DNA of 64,000 nt, taken from Escherichia phage JY01. The notes beneath the pieces are model-generated. The model was not told where the DNA came from, ran no database searches, and was given only the letters and a program-made list of their open reading frames with translations. Both the position numbers and the translations under genes were made by a program. The DNA lies in sequence record OR995200.1; one strand, given 5' to 3'. Positions 18,021 through 28,910 of the stretch are shown one piece after another (within the stretch, counting starts at the first letter, position 1; every line of letters begins with the position of its first letter).

Positions 18021-19834
18021 TGGTGTTTAACCCTATGCATGATTTCTTTATTTTTACCGAGATTAAATCCGCGTTCGTTCGGATTTCCCAAATAACCACA
18101 TGTTCTTCTTATGGTATTCATCTTTTTAGGATCAGTTTCTCCGCAAATAGAACAAACAAATCCGTTTTCAGTAGGAGTCATTTCATGGGTACTTCCACAT
18201 GTAAAACATTTATCTACTGGCATATTAACACCAAAATAATCTAAATGTTGTGCGGCATAATCCCATACAGCCTCAAGACCTTTTAAGTTATTTTTCATAT
18301 CAGGAAGTTCAACATAAGAAATGTGACCACCTGTCGCAATGAAATGATATGGCGCTTCACGAGAAATCTTTTCAAACGGAGTAACATTTTCTTCTACTGA
18401 AACGTGGAAACTGTTAGTGTACCAGCCTTTATCAGTAACATCCTTTACACTTCCATATTTTTCTGTATCAAGTTTACAGAAGCGATAGCAAAGGTTTTCA
18501 GCAGGAGTAGAATACAAGCTAAAAGCAAATCCAGTTCTTTCAGTCCACTGTTTAAGATGAGCATTCATTTTAGTTAAAATTTCTTGCCCAATATCACGAC
18601 CGACAAGAATATTCAATTCGTGAATACCAATGTATCCTAAAGACACTGAACTTCTACCGTTTTTAAATAACTCAATTATGTCGTCATCAGGTTTAAGACG
18701 AACCCCGAATGCACCTTCTTGGTAAAGAATAGGAGCAACAGTCGCTTTAACTCCTTTTAAGGAACTAATTCTACACATCAAAGCTTCAAAACATAAATCC
18801 ATTCGCTCATTGAACAATTCAGTAAATTTCTGTTCATTGAACTGTGTTCCAATATAAGAATCTAACGCAATACGAGGAAGATTCAGTGTTACAACACCAA
18901 GATTATTACGTCCATCAAGAATTTCATTGCCAGTCGAATCTTTCCATACGCTCAAGAAACTACGGCATCCCATCGGGGAAACAGGAACAGATGAACCAGT
19001 GATAGCTTTATTGTTCTTAGCTGAAATAATATCAGGATACATCCTTTTGCTTGCACACTCTAAAGCAAGCTGCTTAATATCATAGTTCGGATCGTCTTTA
19101 TAAAGATTAACACCTTCTTCAACAAACATAACAAGCTTAGGGAAAATAGGAGTTATCCCATCACGACCAAGACCTTTAATACGATTTTTCAAAATTGCTT
19201 TCTGAATCATTCGTTCAGTCCAGTCAGTTCCTGTACCAAATGTAATTGTTACAAAAGGAGTCTGTCCGTTTGAACTAAAGAGAGTATTTACTTCATATTC
19301 ATAAGCTTGGAATGCATCGTATACGTCTTTTTCTGTTTTAGATTGGGCATAATTCAGTGCATCGGCGATTTGCCATTTTTCTGCGTCTTCGATATGTTTT
19401 GCATAGGTGCGTTTAACATAAGGAGAAAGTACTTTATCTACATTAGCAAAAGTCGTTCCGCCATATTGATGGGAAGCAACTTGCGCAGTAATTTGTGCCA
19501 TAATTGCAGTAGCAACACCGATTGATTTAGGAGTTTCAATCTGCGCATTACCAAGCTTAAATCCGTTCTCAAGCATTCCTTTTAAATCTACTAAACAACA
19601 ATTAGTAAATGGAAGAGCAGGGGAATAATCAATATCATGAAAATGAATAATTCCGCTTTCATGCGCTTTCATAATAAAAGACGGGACCATATTTTTGGCA
19701 ATGTGTTTAGACACAATACCAGCCATAAGGTCCCGTTGAGTTGGAAAAACACGAGAATCTTTATTAGCATTCTCGTTTAAAAGGTCTTTATTAGTTTTAT
19801 GAATCAATCCTTCAATTTCTTTTTCAATTGTCAT
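18017..19834 (-). CDS. nrdD: Anaerobic ribonucleoside-triphosphate reductase, uninterrupted
   Basis: 605 aa; C-terminal glycyl-radical region RTCGYLG and Zn cysteines CFTCGS..CSICG. Confidence 0.9.
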   Translation of the reverse strand: MTIEKEIEGLIHKTNKDLLNENANKDSRVFPTQRDLMAGIVSKHIAKNMVPSFIMKAHESGIIHFHDIDYSPALPFTNCCLVDLKGMLENGFKLGNAQIETPKSIGVATAIMAQITAQVASHQYGGTTFANVDKVLSPYVKRTYAKHIEDAEKWQIADALNYAQSKTEKDVYDAFQAYEYEVNTLFSSNGQTPFVTITFGTGTDWTERMIQKAILKNRIKGLGRDGITPIFPKLVMFVEEGVNLYKDDPNYDIKQLALECASKRMYPDIISAKNNKAITGSSVPVSPMGCRSFLSVWKDSTGNEILDGRNNLGVVTLNLPRIALDSYIGTQFNEQKFTELFNERMDLCFEALMCRISSLKGVKATVAPILYQEGAFGVRLKPDDDIIELFKNGRSSVSLGYIGIHELNILVGRDIGQEILTKMNAHLKQWTERTGFAFSLYSTPAENLCYRFCKLDTEKYGSVKDVTDKGWYTNSFHVSVEENVTPFEKISREAPYHFIATGGHISYVELPDMKNNLKGLEAVWDYAAQHLDYFGVNMPVDKCFTCGSTHEMTPTENGFVCSICGETDPKKMNTIRRTCGYLGNPNERGFNLGKNKEIMHRVKHQ

Positions 19835-20304
19835 TTTAAACTCTTTCTAAGCTGCTTCTTAAATGAAGCTATTAATTGTGTTTTAGTGTCAGATTCATTA
19901 TATTCAAATCCTCTTTGAAGCATCTCGGCCATCATTTCCTCTTTTCCTAAACGAGAAAATTCCTTTGATTTATCTCCAACAAAGTTAGGGTGAATATTAT
20001 TTTGGGTGTAATCGGATTTTAAATAAGTAAGTAAATTTTCTAACCATTCAAGATAATCAACACCTTGTCCCTTTAAGCCAGAACGATTAAATTTATGCTT
20101 CATTTGACCTTCTGCGGCATTGCATAGATTACAAAGCAATCCACGTACCTTTCCTGCTTTTGGTCCATTTAATTCATGGTCATGATCAAGATGATTAGCT
20201 TGAACATCAGGATTTAGTTCTCGTTGGCAAATTAAGCATTTACCGTTTTGTGCATTATAAAATTTTTGTTTTTCTTCTTTGTATAATTTGCCAGTCAATA
20301 ACAT
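19831..20304 (-). CDS. 49: Endonuclease VII (Holliday junction resolvase)
   Basis: 157 aa; CLICQ..HLDHDH..CNLCN zinc/HNH-type motif. Confidence 0.9.
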   Translation of the reverse strand: MLLTGKLYKEEKQKFYNAQNGKCLICQRELNPDVQANHLDHDHELNGPKAGKVRGLLCNLCNAAEGQMKHKFNRSGLKGQGVDYLEWLENLLTYLKSDYTQNNIHPNFVGDKSKEFSRLGKEEMMAEMLQRGFEYNESDTKTQLIASFKKQLRKSLK

Positions 20305-20344
20305 AATAAAACCCTTACCTTAAATAGATAAGGGTATTTATTAT

Positions 20345-20520
20345 TTTTAAGTATTGTAAAACATTCGATGCAATCGTTTATACTGTCGAATCATCTTTTT
20401 AGTAGGACGAGAATAGGTTCCTACGCAAGTGGTCATATGAGGGTCCGTAGAATGTCCTTTAATAAAAAGTTTCCAAACCTTACCGCCATTTAACTTTTCA
20501 GTATAAACCAATTCGGTTTT
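20345..20520 (-). CDS. Small ORF sharing its C-terminal 14 residues with the adjacent pin-like gene
   Basis: Manual translation MKTELVYTEK...IRQYKRLHRMFYNT; 3-prime end is a diverged copy of 20558-20606. Confidence 0.3.
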
Positions 20521-20606
20521 CATTAAAATGTCCTGTCAGAAAAAGAATTTTGAGTTTTTTCAAGTATTGTAAAACATTTGATGCAATCGCTTATATTGCC
20601 GAATCT
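20347..20606 (-). repeat. Pair of about 45 bp direct repeats (about 89 percent identical) flanking a small ORF
   Basis: 20347-20395 and 20558-20606 differ at about 5 positions. Confidence 0.6.
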
Positions 20607-21045
20607 TTTGGTCAGAAAAAGAAATTTGAGTTTCAAGCCATTCAATGTACTCTGCGGCAGCTTGCATCAGGTTACCTTCATAGCCATCGTTATTTTCTTG
20701 CGCAGCTAATTTAGCTAATGCGTATGAAATACGTTCACCTTGAAAAGCGGCTTTAGGATTCTGAACATCTTGGCTAGTTCTCTCTACAACTTCTTCAATT
20801 TCGCCATTTTCAACGGATTCAGTATTCCACAAACACCAGTATGTAATTGGCTTATCATAGATGTTAATAATCTTTCCGTCGGAAAGTTCAATTTCAATAA
20901 TTCCAGTATCAGGTTCTATATCATCTTCGCATTCTTTTGCAAGTTCACGAACTTTAAAGACAGTACCTGCACTAAGTTCCGGCCAGTAATTACATAGCCC
21001 TGTATCAACACGATTAATTCTAAACCACTTATCTACTGTAATCAT
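20560..21045 (-). CDS. pin: Pin-like protein (protease inhibitor position)
   Basis: 161 aa from MITVDKW; downstream of gene 49 as in T4. Confidence 0.5.
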   Translation of the reverse strand: MITVDKWFRINRVDTGLCNYWPELSAGTVFKVRELAKECEDDIEPDTGIIEIELSDGKIINIYDKPITYWCLWNTESVENGEIEEVVERTSQDVQNPKAAFQGERISYALAKLAAQENNDGYEGNLMQAAAEYIEWLETQISFSDQKIRQYKRLHQMFYNT

Positions 21046-21167
21046 GTCCCATCTCCATATCAATTAAGTCATTTATCGTTGGTTCATTATATACTGTTTC
21101 TTCATCAGTGTAAACCGGTTCTTCCGGCTCTGGCTCTACAGTTTCCCATCTAGCCGCCCACCAAGGT

Positions 21168-21338
21168 TTAACCCCGAAGCTTATTAAGTTCTTCATAATC
21201 AATCCAGGATTCTAATCCTGATGGCAGGTCACATTCAATTTCCCAAAGAAGTTCTTCAATTTTATGAAGACGATCTAATTCTTCAACAGGAATAGTAACC
21301 ATTGATGGAGCTCTTGCTGCACTAATATCGTATATCAT
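21168..21338 (-). CDS. Hypothetical small protein
   Basis: ORF trimmed to internal ATG. Confidence 0.3.
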   Translation of the reverse strand: MIYDISAARAPSMVTIPVEELDRLHKIEELLWEIECDLPSGLESWIDYEELNKLRG

Positions 21339-21340
21339 AT

Positions 21341-21556
21341 TTACCCCAGTTTGACCATGCAATCGCCGTATTTCCACTTAGAAATAGACTTTTCACCATT
21401 AGAATAATAAACTTCGAGTTTAGCACGATTATTTTTAATTTGAATAACCTTGGCTGTCATCAAAGTTCCATACCCATAATAAACTGCAACTTCATCACCT
21501 ACATATACCGCGCTTCCGCGGTAATCATGAATATAGTCAGTTCCTTCGAGCATCAT
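21341..21556 (-). CDS. Hypothetical protein
   Basis: 71 aa ORF. Confidence 0.45.
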   Translation of the reverse strand: MMLEGTDYIHDYRGSAVYVGDEVAVYYGYGTLMTAKVIQIKNNRAKLEVYYSNGEKSISKWKYGDCMVKLG

Positions 21557-21816
21557 TTAAAATATTCTCGCAGTTGGTCAAATCCACCAATATGACTTCC
21601 ATCAGGAGCAAATACCTGAGGCATTGTCAAGCCGATTTGAGTATCACGACCTAGTTTAGTCAGAAGCTCAGCGATTTTCTCATCATCAAAAACACCTTTT
21701 TCCGGCATAATGTTGATAAATTCAAACGGCTGTTTCTTCACAGTCAAAAGACGTTTTGCATTATCGCAATACACGCATTTATGAATGTTGCTATCATAAC
21801 CATATACTTTAAACAT
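21553..21816 (-). CDS. nrdC: Thioredoxin/glutaredoxin
   Basis: 87 aa; CVYC redox motif. Confidence 0.8.
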   Translation of the reverse strand: MFKVYGYDSNIHKCVYCDNAKRLLTVKKQPFEFINIMPEKGVFDDEKIAELLTKLGRDTQIGLTMPQVFAPDGSHIGGFDQLREYFK

Positions 21817-21817
21817 A

Positions 21818-22060
21818 TTATTCCTTAATTCCTAGTACTTGTTTAAAAGTCTCGTCGTAATCAAGACTTTGGCCCGTTTGTTCTTTATGTTTGTATATAA
21901 TATCACTTACTTCTGATAGCATATTTTTATATGAACGAGTTAAAGCAGATTTAAGCACGCTGTATCTATCAGGAAATTTACCGTGTTCATTATAATAAGC
22001 TATTGCTAATTCACGGACTGCCTTTTCAGCAGCCTCCATATATTCTTTACGCTTGGTCAT
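21818..22060 (-). CDS. Hypothetical protein
   Basis: 80 aa ORF. Confidence 0.45.
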
Positions 22061-22062
22061 TT

Positions 22063-22452
22063 TTAATCCAAAATATTATTAGGCATTGGTTGAACACTCA
22101 CAAGTTCTTTAAAGAACTCAGTAGAGTCAGGCAATTTAACCATTTCCGGAGCATGCTTACTGAATTTATGTTTACATTGACGGCATTTATATTCAAGCTC
22201 TGGTTTACGCCAGTTAATCAACTGAACTTGTTCAGTACCGCATTCAGGGCAATTAGGAACGTTTTTAGAAGCTCTTTCACGTCGTTCAACCATAGCCATA
22301 ATAGCATCCCATGCTGGAGGTTTAAAATCTAAATCGTCGCAGCCGTGAATCTTTCCACGCATTTCCATATCATCTTCCTCACCAGCCATAATAATTTTAA
22401 TTAAACTGGAATTACTTGAAGCTGCAATGTCTTCTAATAAACGCTTTTTCAT
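22063..22452 (-). CDS. Zinc-ribbon protein
   Basis: CPECG..(17)..CRQCKHKF four-cysteine motif. Confidence 0.45.
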
Positions 22453-23378
22453 TTCAATACCTCAATAGCATTACGTAAACCATTTGCTTTTGCATTAAGA
22501 GCTTTTAACAATTTGGTGTGTTCTGCAATTTGGGCTTCAACTTCAATCAAACGGGCATTGAGATATTCACGTTCTTCACTCAGATTATCAACCTTTTCTA
22601 CTTTAGGCTCTTTTACAACTGTCTTATATGTATTAGGGTTCTTCAGTTTAATTAGAATGCGTGAACTGTATAACATTGAACCATTATCTTCGGTTTCGTC
22701 ATACATTTCCACTACGTCCATAATTTTTAACATCATGCGGAGTTTATAAGACAACGAACGAATAGTTTTGTTGTGCTTATTAATTTCTTTAGCTGTCATG
22801 GTGCCAAGATTACGTGAGTAATAATAAGGAACCTGGATATTAATTAATACTGATGAACCACCTGGCTTGTGTGTTACTTCATCAGCAATAACCCAGTCCT
22901 TAACATGAACTGTATTTGTACGGTCATCGCCCGCGGTAAATAGTTTGCGAGCATGCTTAAAAAGCATATTCACTTGGTCATTGAATTGACAAGCAAATTT
23001 ATCAGCAAATTTAGTTTCAGGAATGGTAGAAAACCAATCAGCCAAATGAGTCTTTTTAACATCATTAACAATAGTAAATTCAACCAAATCGGTTATAGAT
23101 GTCTCAGATTTAATGAAGCTTGGCTTCATAAAGTTTTTAATGTTCTCATGAGCTACAGTAGAAGATAACATACGAGAACGTTTAAACCATTCAAGCAAAT
23201 TTCCTAACGAATGAGAATAAGCATTCTGAGTATCTTTACAGATATGATTTTCCTGCCCAACATATTGAAGAAAATCACGAAGAATATTATTAACTACTGC
23301 TCTGTGCCCTATCTGATAATTACGATGTTTAGTAATAAGACTGTCAAAATAATCAATATAATGTTTACGAGTTTTCAT
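22449..23378 (-). CDS. Paralog family member A with C-terminal coiled coil
   Basis: 309 aa; N-terminus MKTRKHYIDYF, C-terminal heptad-rich 40 aa. Confidence 0.5.
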   Translation of the reverse strand: MKTRKHYIDYFDSLITKHRNYQIGHRAVVNNILRDFLQYVGQENHICKDTQNAYSHSLGNLLEWFKRSRMLSSTVAHENIKNFMKPSFIKSETSITDLVEFTIVNDVKKTHLADWFSTIPETKFADKFACQFNDQVNMLFKHARKLFTAGDDRTNTVHVKDWVIADEVTHKPGGSSVLINIQVPYYYSRNLGTMTAKEINKHNKTIRSLSYKLRMMLKIMDVVEMYDETEDNGSMLYSSRILIKLKNPNTYKTVVKEPKVEKVDNLSEEREYLNARLIEVEAQIAEHTKLLKALNAKANGLRNAIEVLK

Positions 23379-23430
23379 ATTCTTCTCACTTGGTTAATGA
23401 TTTATGCTCCAAGCCATCCTTGGCTTTAAA

Positions 23431-24432
23431 TTACTTAATTAACTGTAAAGCTTGTTCAAGACGATCTAGGCGATTAACAGATTCTTCCCAAATCCTTTTA
23501 GCCTGTTCATATTCTTTTTGCGCTTTATTAGAAATTTCTAGAACTTCTTTATAAGCTTTTTCCAGTGCAATAACTTCTGGACGAATTTCTACCGGTTCAG
23601 GTGAATCGTCAAGATTATCCATTAGTTCCTCAAGGGTAGTTTCTTCTTTAGGAGTATTCACAATTTCCTCACATTTTTGTTGGTAAATTTCTTTATCAGT
23701 CGGTGAGTACGCACACTTTACTTCACGAAGGCTAATTATAATTTTATATCCTTCCCAACCGCATATATTCTTAAAAGGATAAGTATGAATATTTTCTACT
23801 GTTTCCATACAAAGTAATGCGGTCTCTAATTGACGAGTTATAGTGCTAGCAATTGAGAAAAATTTATTAATGTTCTTTTGGTTAGTTTCTGGTGTAAAAA
23901 ATCCATAATTCACAAAAATAGCTACTTTATTTTTATCAAGCTCATATTCTTTTACGATAATCATATCAGAAGCTAAAGGATGAATTTGACGATAATCACC
24001 ATAACATAATTTAGAAGCTGATTTTAAAATTTGTCCTTTAAAAAGTCTGAAATTACTAATCCAACGACGAGTAAAAATATTCTCAGGGTCTTCTTTATTA
24101 TTAAGATGATAAGAATTAACATCACCGAACCAATTATATCCTACTACATCTTTGGTTCGTTTAATTTCTTTCCCAAAATTACCAAGAATATCCCGATTAA
24201 CCAAATATGAAAGAAGACGAGACTCTTTAAAGGTTTTCTTGATAACATCTTTATCTACACGGCTAGAAATTTTACGAATTTCATGAATAAATTTAGTAGA
24301 AGAAACAATACTTGCATCAACACTATTGAGCCATTGATTGATAATAGAAAGAACGATATTTTGACCAAACATCGGTATAGCTTTATCATCAATAACGCTA
24401 TTGAATGATTTGATATATTCGTTACGAGTCAT
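23431..24432 (-). CDS. Paralog family member B with C-terminal coiled coil
   Basis: Start set at MTRNEYIKSF; C-terminal coiled coil. Confidence 0.5.
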   Translation of the reverse strand: MTRNEYIKSFNSVIDDKAIPMFGQNIVLSIINQWLNSVDASIVSSTKFIHEIRKISSRVDKDVIKKTFKESRLLSYLVNRDILGNFGKEIKRTKDVVGYNWFGDVNSYHLNNKEDPENIFTRRWISNFRLFKGQILKSASKLCYGDYRQIHPLASDMIIVKEYELDKNKVAIFVNYGFFTPETNQKNINKFFSIASTITRQLETALLCMETVENIHTYPFKNICGWEGYKIIISLREVKCAYSPTDKEIYQQKCEEIVNTPKEETTLEELMDNLDDSPEPVEIRPEVIALEKAYKEVLEISNKAQKEYEQAKRIWEESVNRLDRLEQALQLIK

Positions 24433-24489
24433 AATAATCTCCTCAGTAGAAAGTAAGAACATTATACCACATCCTTGTGGCGAAGTAAA

Positions 24490-25494
24490 CTAGTTCAGTG
24501 CATTTAGTGCGTTGTTCAGTTTAGAACGTTGCTTTGTCAGATTTTGAACTCTTGACTGCGCTTGTTCTAGCACCTTTTCAGCTTCTAGCATTTCATTGGT
24601 TGCTTTAACGAGTTCATCATCTACTGCTTTAAGAGACTTCTCAATCGCATCGGCGTGCCATTTTTCTACAGGTTTAAAATTTGAATTTTCAGTAGGAAGA
24701 AAACTCACTTTATTAAGTTTCCATGCATCTGTACTACTTGAACTGTACATCCAACATTTAGGATCGTTGGATGAGCAATTAGTTTGAGGTTCAGGTTTTT
24801 TCTCTTGCGTAACTTCGTCCTTTCTCAAAAAATCGTATTTAAATGAAACGATCATATCAAGTTCATATGTTGTCGTATCTAACTTAAATCGTTCAAAACG
24901 AGGTAAAATCTTAGATTGAACAGCAGAAACAACATCCATATACTTAAATGCTTCTGTCAACTGTGATTTAAGGCATTCACAAATTGAAAGAGAATTTTTT
25001 GTATTAGGTTTAAAGCTAATTCGTGCAGTTCTGTTATTTTCTTTTAATGGTCTTACTTCCATCTGAAGAGTATAACCATCAAATTTCAGATTCTTTAAGT
25101 TAATGTCAGAGCCTTTTAATCGACTAGCTGTGGACAAAATTTGCTTTAATTGTCTACGGAACAGAGCAATAAATCTCCATTCAATACGATAATGATTTGG
25201 ATTGAAAAATCCAGATGATAAATCGACCTTACTTTGACCAACGCCTTGAACAAATAGAGGATTTTTATAATCAATAGTTTTACAGAAATCGGTGAGCTGT
25301 TCACGAGCAGTCATTTGTGTAATATACCCCGCTTTACTAAAATGACGTAACCATTCACTGCTATTCATATATTTAAAGTGAATATCACGATTAACTTTAT
25401 CAGGGTCTAAATTATTTTGGCACAAAAATGTCATAACATCACGAGTATAGCTGGCATTACGAACCATATCTTCAATTTGAGAACGAGTTTTCAT
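24490..25494 (-). CDS. Paralog family member C with C-terminal coiled coil
   Basis: 334 aa; N-terminus MKTRSQIEDM; C-terminal coiled coil. Confidence 0.5.
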   Translation of the reverse strand: MKTRSQIEDMVRNASYTRDVMTFLCQNNLDPDKVNRDIHFKYMNSSEWLRHFSKAGYITQMTAREQLTDFCKTIDYKNPLFVQGVGQSKVDLSSGFFNPNHYRIEWRFIALFRRQLKQILSTASRLKGSDINLKNLKFDGYTLQMEVRPLKENNRTARISFKPNTKNSLSICECLKSQLTEAFKYMDVVSAVQSKILPRFERFKLDTTTYELDMIVSFKYDFLRKDEVTQEKKPEPQTNCSSNDPKCWMYSSSSTDAWKLNKVSFLPTENSNFKPVEKWHADAIEKSLKAVDDELVKATNEMLEAEKVLEQAQSRVQNLTKQRSKLNNALNALN

Positions 25495-25502
25495 GGTGTT
25501 CC

Positions 25503-26390
25503 TTAAGATTTAAGTAAATCAACAATTTTAATTAATTTTTCACGCTCAGATTTAGCTTTACTACTCAATCCAGATAGTCTAAAAATTTCATCATCATATT
25601 GTTGAATAGAAATATTCAGCTCTTCAATCTGCTTATTAAAATAATCAATTTGTTCAGAATGTTTTTCGTTACTACGAACTGGTACAGGTTTTGTAGGCAA
25701 TTTAGTTGAACTGGATTCATCCGGGCGATAAATTAAAATACAACTTGAACCAATTGGACATTTTGCACCAGATGAATATTCTAATGTTCCAGATTCTTTT
25801 AAAACTTCAAAAGCTAAACAGAGATGATGACCCATATTGACATAATCAGTAGAGCGAGCTCTGATGTAATAATCATCTCCACGAGTACTAAATTTAAAGC
25901 ATTTAAGGTCTTCTGTATTATTGGTCTTAAAAATCATTTGTTTATCTAGACCTTTAGCTAATCGAGCGCCTAATGCTAATAATCGTCGTTGATTTTCCCA
26001 CAAATCTGCAATCATTTGGTCAAATGATAATTTTGGCATTAGTCGACCATAAAGGTCATATCCTTTATTATAATTACGAAGAATTTCACTCGCATTAATA
26101 CGAGACAATGCTCCAATTTTATTAAGGGCTTTCATGATGCGATTAGATAAACTCATTCCAGATCCGTTTGTTCGCTGTAAATGTTTTTCTAATCCAAATC
26201 CAATATCAACTTTAAATTTATCTAAAATTTCAGCATGAACATCTCTGTCAATAACATTCAAATCCAAAGTTGGGTTAAATCTATGAAAAAATTTATCTGG
26301 CTCTCCACGACGAAGTACAGTCCATTCATTCAATTTTTTATTAACTAAAGATTTAATTACTGTATTGACATTATTAATTACTACTGACAT
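25503..26390 (-). CDS. Paralog family member D with C-terminal coiled coil
   Basis: Start set at internal ATG; C-terminal coiled coil. Confidence 0.45.
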   Translation of the reverse strand: MSVVINNVNTVIKSLVNKKLNEWTVLRRGEPDKFFHRFNPTLDLNVIDRDVHAEILDKFKVDIGFGLEKHLQRTNGSGMSLSNRIMKALNKIGALSRINASEILRNYNKGYDLYGRLMPKLSFDQMIADLWENQRRLLALGARLAKGLDKQMIFKTNNTEDLKCFKFSTRGDDYYIRARSTDYVNMGHHLCLAFEVLKESGTLEYSSGAKCPIGSSCILIYRPDESSSTKLPTKPVPVRSNEKHSEQIDYFNKQIEELNISIQQYDDEIFRLSGLSSKAKSEREKLIKIVDLLKS

Positions 26391-26397
26391 ATTTTCC

Positions 26398-26805
26398 TCA
26401 CTCAATTTCAATTTTACTAAATACACAGAATATGATGGAAAAGACTATATAAGCACCGCATACAGATTGAACTAATACCATTCCAAAGAACCAAACGATA
26501 TTATCAAACAATGTCTGTTTTACGTCGAAAGGACGTAAACTTACAGTAATATTATCACCTTTTTCTATTGAAGAATACATCTCTGGGGAAATATATTCAC
26601 TAAATCTATAACCGTCTTTGAGTTCATATACGGCAATAAACGATAAACTAGACCCCTTTCCTTGAGTTCCTGTAATGGTATTAACTACAGTAACATCATA
26701 ATCTTTATAATGCATATAATCATTAATAGCATAATAACCATATGCAATTACTATACATAAACAACATATCAATAAATTCAATCTTTTAATTATCAACTGT
26801 TTCAT
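26398..26805 (-). CDS. Membrane protein
   Basis: 135 aa, N- and C-terminal hydrophobic helices. Confidence 0.45.
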   Translation of the reverse strand: MKQLIIKRLNLLICCLCIVIAYGYYAINDYMHYKDYDVTVVNTITGTQGKGSSLSFIAVYELKDGYRFSEYISPEMYSSIEKGDNITVSLRPFDVKQTLFDNIVWFFGMVLVQSVCGAYIVFSIIFCVFSKIEIE

Positions 26806-26860
26806 AATAATCTCAATTAAAAGGGCTTAGAACCATTATACCATCCTTGGTATAAAGCGG

Positions 26861-27388
26861 TTATGCGAGTACCGTCTTTAACCGTTCTTCAAATTTCCGA
26901 AGAGTGTTCTGGCGTTCAGCTCTTTGCTTTTTGTAAGTTTCAATACGCTCTGAAATGAGAGTGTATCGTTCATTTACTGATTCTTTCATAAAATCAGGAA
27001 TTTCACGAGAAGCTTTAATCTCATCAAATTTATCAATAACAGCTTGCTCTTCAGCAATTAAGTTATCATACATTAAAATATCTTTCTTGATGAACTCAAT
27101 ATCTTCTTGAGTTACACGAGATAATTTAGATGCTTTATCCTTTTTGTACTGTTCGTTAGTATCACGAGACCAGTGTAATGTACGATTTTTATTCGTATTT
27201 TTGTAAATTTCTACAATACCAATTTCATCAATAATAACGATCCAATTCCAACGGGATTTGTAAATTTGTCCTCCATCAACAGTGATTTCACCTCCGATTG
27301 AGATGTCGTTAAAGAACTTGCTTTGTGCTTCAGATTTAAATTTACCATCGTTGTAATTTACCAAGTTGAAAATATCTTTAGCGTTCAT
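26861..27388 (-). CDS. Hypothetical protein
   Basis: Start ATG 27386-27388 with GGAGG 8 nt upstream, downstream of promoter cassette. Confidence 0.5.
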   Translation of the reverse strand: MNAKDIFNLVNYNDGKFKSEAQSKFFNDISIGGEITVDGGQIYKSRWNWIVIIDEIGIVEIYKNTNKNRTLHWSRDTNEQYKKDKASKLSRVTQEDIEFIKKDILMYDNLIAEEQAVIDKFDEIKASREIPDFMKESVNERYTLISERIETYKKQRAERQNTLRKFEERLKTVLA

Positions 27389-27852: not shown

Positions 27853-28821
27853 TTATTTCAGAAGAGTAACCTCAGCAATTTCTTCCCAACCGTTTTTGTC
27901 GGTCATAATAAAGTCAGCAAGATAAAGAGCAGTACGCAGTGAAACATTGCGTAAACGATTAACATTGACTTTCATCCATGATAATGCTTTATAAGTTTCT
28001 TCATCAGAAAGACCGCGCTTTTGCATCATGTCAGTTGAAAGAATAACATCTTCAACCCTGACCATAATTTCTTCATTAGTGTGAACACCCAAATCCAAAT
28101 AAACTGAGCGGGACACTAATGCTTGTAAATGTGGAGCAAGTTTAGTACCACGGTCTAATTCGCGGTCAATGTCAACGTTTGTGATAAAAACAATCGTTCC
28201 TTTAAATTCAAACTCACGCTCAATGCCTTTTTCTTCTAAGTAAGAAGATGCAGTGCTCCAGCAGACTTTACGGGTCTCTCCAGTGTCCAGAGCGGCTTTT
28301 AGAAGATTAAGAATATCCATATCAGAGAAAACATCCACATCATCAATCAAAAGGACAGAATTCTCTTCACGATTATTCCAAAGCTGCTCATAAAGACCGA
28401 TACCGGAGATTTTACCGTTAATGCTTTTATATTCAATGTATCCAATATCATTTGCTTTATTTAAAGCTTTATCTAAAGAATACGTTTTACCAATACCTGC
28501 TGCACCAGAGATAATTAATGAACGAATGTTTCCGTTAATAATACCATTCGTCATCATTCCCATAACATTAAATCTTTTATTAATGCGGGTTTTCATATCT
28601 TCATACGATTCTTTAACTTCTTCAACTTTTACACCATCATATGAAATGTCTGATTTGTAAACCCAAACACCGCGACGTTTACCGTCAATTTCAACAAAAA
28701 CTTTACCATCTCCTTGTGCATCTACCGGAGCATTATCTGGGAACCATTCGCCTAAGAGCTCAAAAGTTCCAGAGATTTCTTTACCGAAGTAGATACCCTT
28801 ATTGATAGTTACAGTTTTCAT
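27853..28821 (-). CDS. P-loop ATPase (AAA-like)
   Basis: Walker A SGAAGIGKT, Walker B VLLIDDVD; start ATG 28819-28821 with GGAG. Confidence 0.6.
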   Translation of the reverse strand: MKTVTINKGIYFGKEISGTFELLGEWFPDNAPVDAQGDGKVFVEIDGKRRGVWVYKSDISYDGVKVEEVKESYEDMKTRINKRFNVMGMMTNGIINGNIRSLIISGAAGIGKTYSLDKALNKANDIGYIEYKSINGKISGIGLYEQLWNNREENSVLLIDDVDVFSDMDILNLLKAALDTGETRKVCWSTASSYLEEKGIEREFEFKGTIVFITNVDIDRELDRGTKLAPHLQALVSRSVYLDLGVHTNEEIMVRVEDVILSTDMMQKRGLSDEETYKALSWMKVNVNRLRNVSLRTALYLADFIMTDKNGWEEIAEVTLLK

Positions 28822-28910
28822 TTTATTCTCCAAATCTGTATCAGTAGTTGATAGTTGTATAGTACCATAAAGCTTTATGATTGTAAACCGTTTTGTGAAA
28901 AATTTTTGAA
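28822..28910 (-). promoter_or_regulatory. Early promoter cassette copy 4
   Basis: -35 TTTACA (28882-28887), -10 TACTAT (28859-28864); leader identical to copy 1. Confidence 0.6.

Follow-up and report, generated by a model that had tools for sequence, protein, structure and literature searches.

Four neighbouring genes of Escherichia phage JY01, the orthologues of T4 nrdC.3, nrdC.4, nrdC.5 and nrdC.6, encode homologous proteins, nrdC.3 and nrdC.4 being close paralogs and nrdC.5 and nrdC.6 remote ones. We analysed a stretch of 64,000 nucleotides from this phage (sequence record OR995200.1; hereafter the window), in which the genes lie in tandem on the minus strand at positions 22449-26426. The explanation that we favour, and that we regard as somewhat probable, is that they encode oligomeric counter-defence proteins that belong to one diversified family and act as stoichiometric binders and inhibitors of host anti-phage immune proteins. 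On this explanation, the four genes nrdC.3-nrdC.6 would have arisen long ago by tandem duplication of a single gene specific to the Straboviridae, and each product would combine a conserved scaffold (an N-terminal helical domain plus an alpha/beta sandwich) with a flexible linker, a paralog-specific coiled coil and two variable patches (residues ~20-60 and ~180-270). The proteins, which are non-essential, would be transcribed from T4-early-type promoters and would inhibit host immune proteins by stoichiometric binding. The NrdC.5 of the window would neutralise the SIR2 NADase defence Dsr1, as its T4 orthologue does, while the other three paralogs would have diverged to act on different Dsr1 variants or different defence proteins; targets would be bound by the variable patches, with avidity supplied by the coiled coil. 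The anti-Dsr1 role of T4 NrdC.5 has already been published. What is new here is the superfamily relationship, its distribution across the Straboviridae with an expansion in coliphages, a model of the domains and the mapping of the variable surfaces.

The window comes from a Tequatrovirus (T4-like) genome. The 3,978-base region that holds the array is 96% identical to many Tequatrovirus genomes, and the flanking open reading frames (ORFs) follow the T4 order of endonuclease VII, NrdC and nrdC.1 to nrdC.11. The first-pass annotation had reported four consecutive minus-strand ORFs here, and all four are present (Table 1); we name them after the T4 record. Their products are 61-98% identical to those of T4, nrdC.6 reaching 98% over 259 aa. 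Two of the genes most likely start downstream of the longest frame: nrdC.4 at ATG 24432, because the MTRNEY N-terminus is invariant in all relatives in the alignment, and nrdC.6 at ATG 26390 instead of GTG 26426, because the N-terminus MSVV is conserved in all relatives. The nrdC.5 product matches PF23882 (DUF7235) over its full length (E 1.6e-110; 369.8 bits vs a cutoff of 30) as well as phrog_2351 (E 6e-162), and its gene is syntenic with T4 nrdC.5, between nrdC.4 and nrdC.6; the Pfam search gave no DUF7235 match in nrdC.3, nrdC.4 or nrdC.6. Pfam splits the array proteins into three families (PF26897, PF23882 and PF26899), of which PF26897 is carried by relatives of nrdC.4 and PF26899 by 105 of 105 relatives of nrdC.6. 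PHROGs likewise unites nrdC.3 and nrdC.4 (phrog_1435) and keeps nrdC.5 (phrog_2351) and nrdC.6 (phrog_2257) separate. Orthologues of nrdC.3-nrdC.6 and of nrdC.10 (27853-28833) are labelled 'thioredoxin' in many GenBank records. The four genes have no thioredoxin or glutaredoxin Pfam match at E<=1 and no CxxC in their translations, and the nrdC.10 orthologues that bear the label likewise lack a thioredoxin Pfam match. To judge by these sequences, the label is a mis-annotation propagated from the gene name.

Table 1. Positions in the window of the array genes, their C-terminal segments and the promoter-like site
Feature	Positions	Strand	Remarks
nrdC.3 orthologue	22449..23378	minus	309 aa; hypervariable allele, 61% identical to T4 NrdC.3; phrog_1435 E 9e-116; NrdC.3/NrdC.4 family
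C-terminal helical segment of nrdC.3	22452..22586	minus	last 45 aa; aligned with the other three terminal helices; heptad test alone not significant
nrdC.4 orthologue	23431..24432	minus	333 aa from ATG 24432 (most likely start); longest ORF to 24462; 96% identical to T4; phrog_1435 E 6e-169
C-terminal long helix/coiled coil of nrdC.4 (predicted)	23434..23580	minus	residues 285-333, ...RLEQALQLIK; AF2 helix 285-332
T4-early-type promoter-like site, GTTTAC-N17-TGGTATAAT	24461..24489	minus	57-nt gap before nrdC.4; consensus scan 10/12 with TG; consensus match only
nrdC.5 orthologue	24490..25494	minus	334 aa; Pfam DUF7235; 90.6% identity to T4 NrdC.5, full length
C-terminal coiled coil of nrdC.5 (predicted)	24493..24663	minus	residues 278-334, ...KLNNALNALN; AF2 helix 278-333
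nrdC.6 orthologue	25503..26390	minus	295 aa from ATG 26390 (most likely start); ORF reaches GTG 26426; phrog_2257 E 9.6e-153
C-terminal coiled coil of nrdC.6 (predicted)	25506..25649	minus	residues 248-295, ...KLIKIVDLLKS; family-invariant DDEIxRL...K.ER...LLK

Homology among the four proteins is carried by profile comparison. BLASTP gave a significant match only between nrdC.3 and nrdC.4 (E 3.5e-6; every other pair E>0.2), and profile methods were therefore needed. We compared family alignments of 8-101 relatives by hhalign, with the same profile reversed as the control. The nrdC.3 and nrdC.4 profiles matched at P 1.8e-13, nrdC.4 and nrdC.5 at P 3.5e-5 over 241 colinear columns (8e-4 after removal of the last 60 columns), nrdC.3 and nrdC.5 at P 8e-5, nrdC.4 and nrdC.6 at P 1.8e-3, and nrdC.5 and nrdC.6 at P 0.006-0.014. 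A merged profile of the first three matched nrdC.6, the most distant paralog, at P 1.4e-5 over 146 columns starting at residue 1, while all reversed controls gave P 0.15-0.9. All four families are thus connected colinearly, and the similarity goes beyond composition. In addition, when the 139 ORFs of the window were searched with hidden Markov models (HMMs), the top non-self match of each family was always another member of the array. The single-copy protein PM2_092 of Pectobacterium phage PM2 forms a bridge, as it matches the HMMs of both nrdC.5 (4e-7) and nrdC.6 (5e-9). The proposal of the first-pass annotation that these genes are tandem paralogs is therefore borne out by the colinear links and the mutual top matches.

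The merged alignment contains, in order, the blocks FK.SR.LS....A..IL..F.K and F....ILK.A.+L..GD.R, a helix L..AL..M..V, the pair PV and a terminal helix ending +L..A...LK. The N-terminal half thus holds two common motifs (FK.SR.LS....A..IL..F and F....ILK.A.+L..GD), and the part that varies most between paralogs is residues ~150-280, with the second beta-hairpin and the linker, so that the 'divergent middles' of the first-pass annotation are roughly right. The common MKTR/MTRN-type N-terminus that it described holds for three of the proteins (MKTR in nrdC.3 and nrdC.5, MTR in nrdC.4) and fails for nrdC.6, which begins MSVVIN. At the DNA level, a 12-nt start, ATGAAAACTCGT, is identical in nrdC.3 and nrdC.5. 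No other DNA repeat between the paralogs was found, and no Rfam family occurs in 19-31 kb of the window, which argues for ancient duplications with no RNA element involved. On account of its C-terminal heptads we also considered nrdC.8 as a fifth member, and rejected it (hhalign P 0.05-0.2, no better than the controls); this highly conserved 175-aa protein (26861-27388) has a significant C-terminal heptad segment (p=0.005), and its profile does not resemble those of the array proteins.

Structure prediction with AlphaFold2 (AF2) was applied to nrdC.4 and nrdC.5. The nrdC.4 model, made with a multiple sequence alignment (MSA) merging all four families (predicted local distance difference test, pLDDT, 83.4; predicted template modelling score, pTM, 0.68), starts with six helices (3-84), a three-strand meander (88-110) and further helices (116-148). 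After these come a beta-beta-alpha-beta-beta unit at 158-235 and a pair of helices at 246-272, and a low-confidence linker (273-284) leads to a 48-residue terminal helix. In a Foldseek search of BFVD, this model matched two proteins over their full length, JS10 NrdC.6 (E 4e-5) and an nrdC.3-type protein from phage fPS-65 (E 2e-8), both at probability 1.0 and with TM-scores of 0.3-0.4. The models suggest a common build of N-terminal helical domain, α/β sandwich, variable linker and coiled coil. The first-pass annotation had attributed a heptad-rich C-terminus to all four proteins. Long terminal helices are predicted for nrdC.4 and nrdC.5, and heptads stood out against shuffled sequences in nrdC.5 (p<0.005; score 0.84 vs a null of 0.46±0.08, reached by 0/200 shuffles) and in nrdC.6 (p=0.005); the test gave p=0.07 for nrdC.4 and was not significant for nrdC.3. 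A tail of the form φxxφLK closes the very C-terminus of the window proteins (AIEVLK, ALQLIK, ALNALN and IVDLLKS) and of the PM2 (LSALK) and Apostate (IKILSK) members. The terminal helix of nrdC.4 is nearly invariant across orthologues that are only 40-50% identical overall. Because the coiled-coil sequences are conserved inside each paralog and different between paralogs, each coil most likely joins copies of one protein into a homo-oligomer.

The superfamily was found only in Straboviridae, usually as a single copy at the same locus and as three to four copies in the Tevenvirinae that infect E. coli. Tequatrovirus (the window and T4) has four members, in the order nrdC.6, nrdC.5, nrdC.4 and nrdC.3; Dhakavirus (Bp7) and Gaprivervirus (RZ) have three, which are nrdC.6-like, nrdC.5-like (23-27% identity) and nrdC.4-like, and Mosigvirus (WFbE185) has nrdC.6-, nrdC.5- and nrdC.3-like genes. 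Mosugukvirus (PM2), Jiaodavirus (KP1) and Lazarusvirus (Apostate, from Acinetobacter) carry one syntenic member between nrdC.10 and nrdC, and a related-locus search of viral contigs gave 5 loci. In PM2, KP1 and Apostate, the genes of 261-269 aa beside the single-copy member proved not to belong to the family. A HMMER search with the nrdC.3/nrdC.4 profile against 1.84 billion representative proteins returned only 9 clusters, all of close relatives and with no cellular or distant homologs, so the family is confined to T4-like phages at the sequence level. Other full-length BFVD matches to the nrdC.4 model at probability 1.0 included uncharacterised proteins of 300-370 aa from T4-like phages of Enterobacter, Klebsiella, Pectobacterium, Erwinia, Serratia, Yersinia and Acinetobacter, and a protein of Aeromonas phage Aeh1 matched more weakly (E 0.0095, prob 0.77).

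The array is also prone to loss and rearrangement. Phage ACG-C40 has its nrdC.5-to-nrdC.3 stretch deleted down to a 71-aa remnant (L010:4805-5216), an in-frame nrdC.5::nrdC.3 chimera without nrdC.4 exists as a natural rearrangement, and Shigella phage Sf25 has an nrdC.6 with an internal duplication. In the T4 reference, a frameshift after ...QIEEL deprives nrdC.6 (275 aa, L001:8067-8894) of the C-terminal coiled coil that the window gene (295 aa) and most relatives have; it is either a lesion of the laboratory strain or an old sequencing error. Among 653 phage records, nrdC.3 falls into three discrete allele classes (92-100%, 74-78% and 59-61% identity), the middle one of which includes Mosigvirus records. 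The window and T4 types of nrdC.3 differ by dN 0.31 and dS about 1 (~0.8-1.0), while flanking genes have dS about 0.1; the alleles have therefore been exchanged and did not diverge in place. Deep allele classes also occur in nrdC.2; the window gene (129 aa, a zinc ribbon, 25 aa longer than T4 nrdC.2) shows dS ~0.4-1.2 vs T4-type genomes, and nrdC.2 and nrdC.3 together (22063-23378) form a mosaic exchange block. The single-copy member of Acinetobacter phages (Apostate orf114, L012:12786-13817) recalls the nrdC.3 classes, as its 52 records are either 95-100% or about 36% identical, with none between.

The array genes evolve faster than their neighbours. Within Tequatrovirus, the ratio of nonsynonymous to synonymous substitution rates (dN/dS) is 0.12-0.26 for nrdC.4, 0.19-0.26 for nrdC.5 and 0.03-0.20 for nrdC.6, against <=0.05 for endonuclease VII, nrdC, nrdC.8 and nrdC.10. 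The variation among close Tequatrovirus orthologues of these three clusters at the same stretches, residues ~20-60 and ~180-270, and residues 60-180 are almost invariant.

A function has been reported for one member. A T4 clone with a deletion fails on ECOR17 owing to the SIR2-domain defence Dsr1, and T4 nrdC.5 alone, supplied in trans, restores its plating on Dsr1 cells (Srikant, Guegler & Laub, eLife 2022, PMC9391042); T4 also tolerates deletion of its nrdC.1-6 block (PMC9825161). The remark in the first-pass annotation that no function is known is thus out of date, while its guess at an anti-defence role gains support for nrdC.5 through the T4 orthologue. For nrdC.3, nrdC.4 and nrdC.6 we infer such a role because of their homology, dispensability, frequent loss or rearrangement, allele replacement and evolution faster than that of their neighbours. 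An incomplete literature search, which does not prove absence, found no published function for these three and no description of the four as one family. From the promoter-like site before nrdC.4 and the statement 'early gene' in PMC9391042, the array proteins are presumably made early. A 10-mer hairpin motif, CCAAGGATGG, occurs in two intergenic gaps, and a related variant, CCACAAGGATGTGG (loop AGGA), in a third. The three minus-strand sites (23414-23423, 24467-24480 and 26841-26850) lie in the gaps before nrdC.3, nrdC.4 and nrdC.7, each just upstream of a TATAAT-like box. The 10-mer is not enriched across the window; perhaps it is part of a promoter that was copied when the genes were duplicated.

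Several observations weigh against a counter-defence family. The sole functional datum is the plating phenotype of T4 NrdC.5, so Dsr1 binding by NrdC.5 is putative. No single test ties nrdC.5 or nrdC.6 strongly to the others (probabilities of 15-80% in hhalign), and the AF2 model of nrdC.5 with its own shallow MSA is poor (pLDDT 48) and was kept out of the fold searches, although its order of elements from residue ~99 onward is that of the nrdC.4 model. Gene-wide dN/dS stays below 1 throughout; 'diversifying', the earlier description of these genes, is borne out only in part, in that they reach 0.1-0.3 vs <=0.05 in the flanks. Moreover, nrdC.6 is 95-99% identical in most Tequatroviruses and fits an arms-race gene less well. 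Finally, nrdC.3, nrdC.5 and nrdC.6 are basic (isoelectric point ~9.2), with the positive charge in residues 1-240, which leaves room for nucleic-acid binding.

The last two points would also fit a reading in which nrdC.5 alone serves counter-defence and the other three have an unrelated host-takeover or nucleic-acid role, with the basic N-terminal helical domain binding DNA or RNA, or are redundant copies adrift. The truncation of T4 nrdC.6, which has no known consequence, would be in keeping with it, as would the matches of nrdC.3 residues 30-86 to the SAM-like N-terminal domain of tyrosine recombinases. We rejected these weak matches as evidence, however (Pfam E 0.12, NCBIfam E 0.0026), as they are far under the curated cutoffs (17 bits vs 279). 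Searches of Pfam, NCBIfam, PADLOC and PDB sequences revealed no enzyme signature; PADLOC and NCBIfam gave nothing meaningful for the array proteins, and all that three family profiles picked up among PDB sequences was noise from coiled coils or low complexity (keratin, designed helical repeats, L36). The genes are kept as full-length ORFs in hundreds of genomes with dN/dS <0.3, and the copies are therefore not drifting pseudogenes; in addition, a single mode of action is suggested by the architecture and the pattern of variable patches that the proteins have in common. We consider a role confined to nrdC.5 to be unlikely, if still conceivable.

It is also tempting to speculate that the array proteins are decoys, with a central alpha/beta domain that imitates, or descends from, a virion protein of tail-terminator-like fold, so that the early paralogs would occupy immune sensors of phage structural proteins, without activating them, before the late proteins appear. 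Two BFVD entries named 'tail terminator' do match the nrdC.4 model (prob 0.96-0.97), the TPR (tetratricopeptide repeat) sensor of Dsr1 is reportedly triggered by the phage major capsid protein, as is the Avs7 sensor (preprint PMC12803255), and a precedent exists in DSAD1, which is reported to counteract the tail-tube-sensing DSR2. However, the α+β two-layer sandwich of the model is a common fold that also matches TRAPP Bet3, Rpb11, S6 and nitroreductases, the reported trigger of Dsr1 is the capsid protein and not a tail terminator, and binding of sensors by array proteins is hypothetical. Compared with the tail terminators (lambda gpU, T5 p142, SPP1 gp17-like), scores are below the confident threshold, with 3-14% identity and no sequence similarity; the array proteins add the N-terminal helical and C-terminal coiled-coil parts, and their genes lie outside the tail module, between endonuclease VII/nrdC and nrdC.10/nrdC.11 and behind T4-early-type promoters. 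No known structural family can be assigned with confidence, and we hold the decoy proposal to be very doubtful. That the four proteins assemble with one another into a hetero-oligomeric early complex with a single function, joined through related C-terminal coiled coils, as their shared terminal motif and co-transcription in two adjacent early units might suggest, is most improbable, as nrdC.5 alone suffices against Dsr1 in trans, the number of copies varies from one to three in other genera, T4 does without the nrdC.6 coiled coil, and the coils differ between paralogs.

NrdC.5, so far an isolated anti-Dsr1 factor, takes its place in a tandem family of four, with single-copy relatives at the same locus in T4-like phages of Klebsiella, Acinetobacter, Pectobacterium, Yersinia and Aeromonas. 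If the array is a diversified family of counter-defence proteins, our analysis would provide three new candidates for counter-defence screening (nrdC.3, nrdC.4 and nrdC.6), a structural hypothesis as to which surfaces decide target specificity, and a possible account of host-range differences among near-identical T-even phages, for example through nrdC.3 alleles. It also corrects the widespread 'thioredoxin' mis-annotation of the array genes. We could speculate further, in a version that we think quite doubtful, that NrdC.3-6 are Straboviridae-wide oligomeric sensor blockers with a tail-terminator-like core and two hypervariable patches, each paralog or allele jamming a different receptor of the Dsr1/Avs type that senses structural proteins. 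Were this true, the tandem expansion in coliphages and the swapping of nrdC.3 alleles would record an arms race with the defence islands of E. coli.

The closest known system is T4 NrdC.5 itself. Its syntenic orthologue stands third in the array, with 90.6% identity and a full-length DUF7235 match, and the other three genes encode remote homologs that are predicted to share its domain order and C-terminal coiled coil; however, the anti-Dsr1 activity is known for the T4 protein only, and nrdC.3, nrdC.4 and nrdC.6 belong to separate families (PF26897/phrog_1435 and PF26899/phrog_2257). DSAD1, an inhibitor of the SIR2 defence DSR2 from SPbeta-group phages (PMC10981675, PMC11087589), is likewise a phage protein directed against a SIR2 NADase and thus a functional analogue of the role proposed for NrdC.5. 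It comes from another phage group and host, and the likeness is one of function; no relation in sequence or fold was found, and no direct comparison was made. The T4 internal proteins IPI, IPII and IPIII resemble the array as a small, diversified and dispensable accessory set of T-even phages whose members disable different defences, IPI countering GmrSD and IPIII an unknown ECOR17 system (PMC9391042). The internal proteins, however, carry a capsid-targeting sequence by which they enter the head, and they are injected; NrdC.3-6 have no such signal, lie behind early promoters and are unrelated to them in sequence.

Finally, an inhibitor of the OLD defence, Gp49.2 of T6 and T4, is encoded only a few genes from the array (PMC13096335; reported 2026). 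The genes just downstream of the array (19831-22060 in the window; the T6 region pin-nrdC.1) include 49.x genes. Gp49.2 is a small unrelated protein outside the paralog family, but it shares with the array the neighbourhood (pin - 49.x - nrdC - nrdC.x), the restriction to Straboviridae and the status of a dispensable accessory gene. This likeness supports the view that the whole stretch from pin to nrdC.11 may be a counter-defence island.

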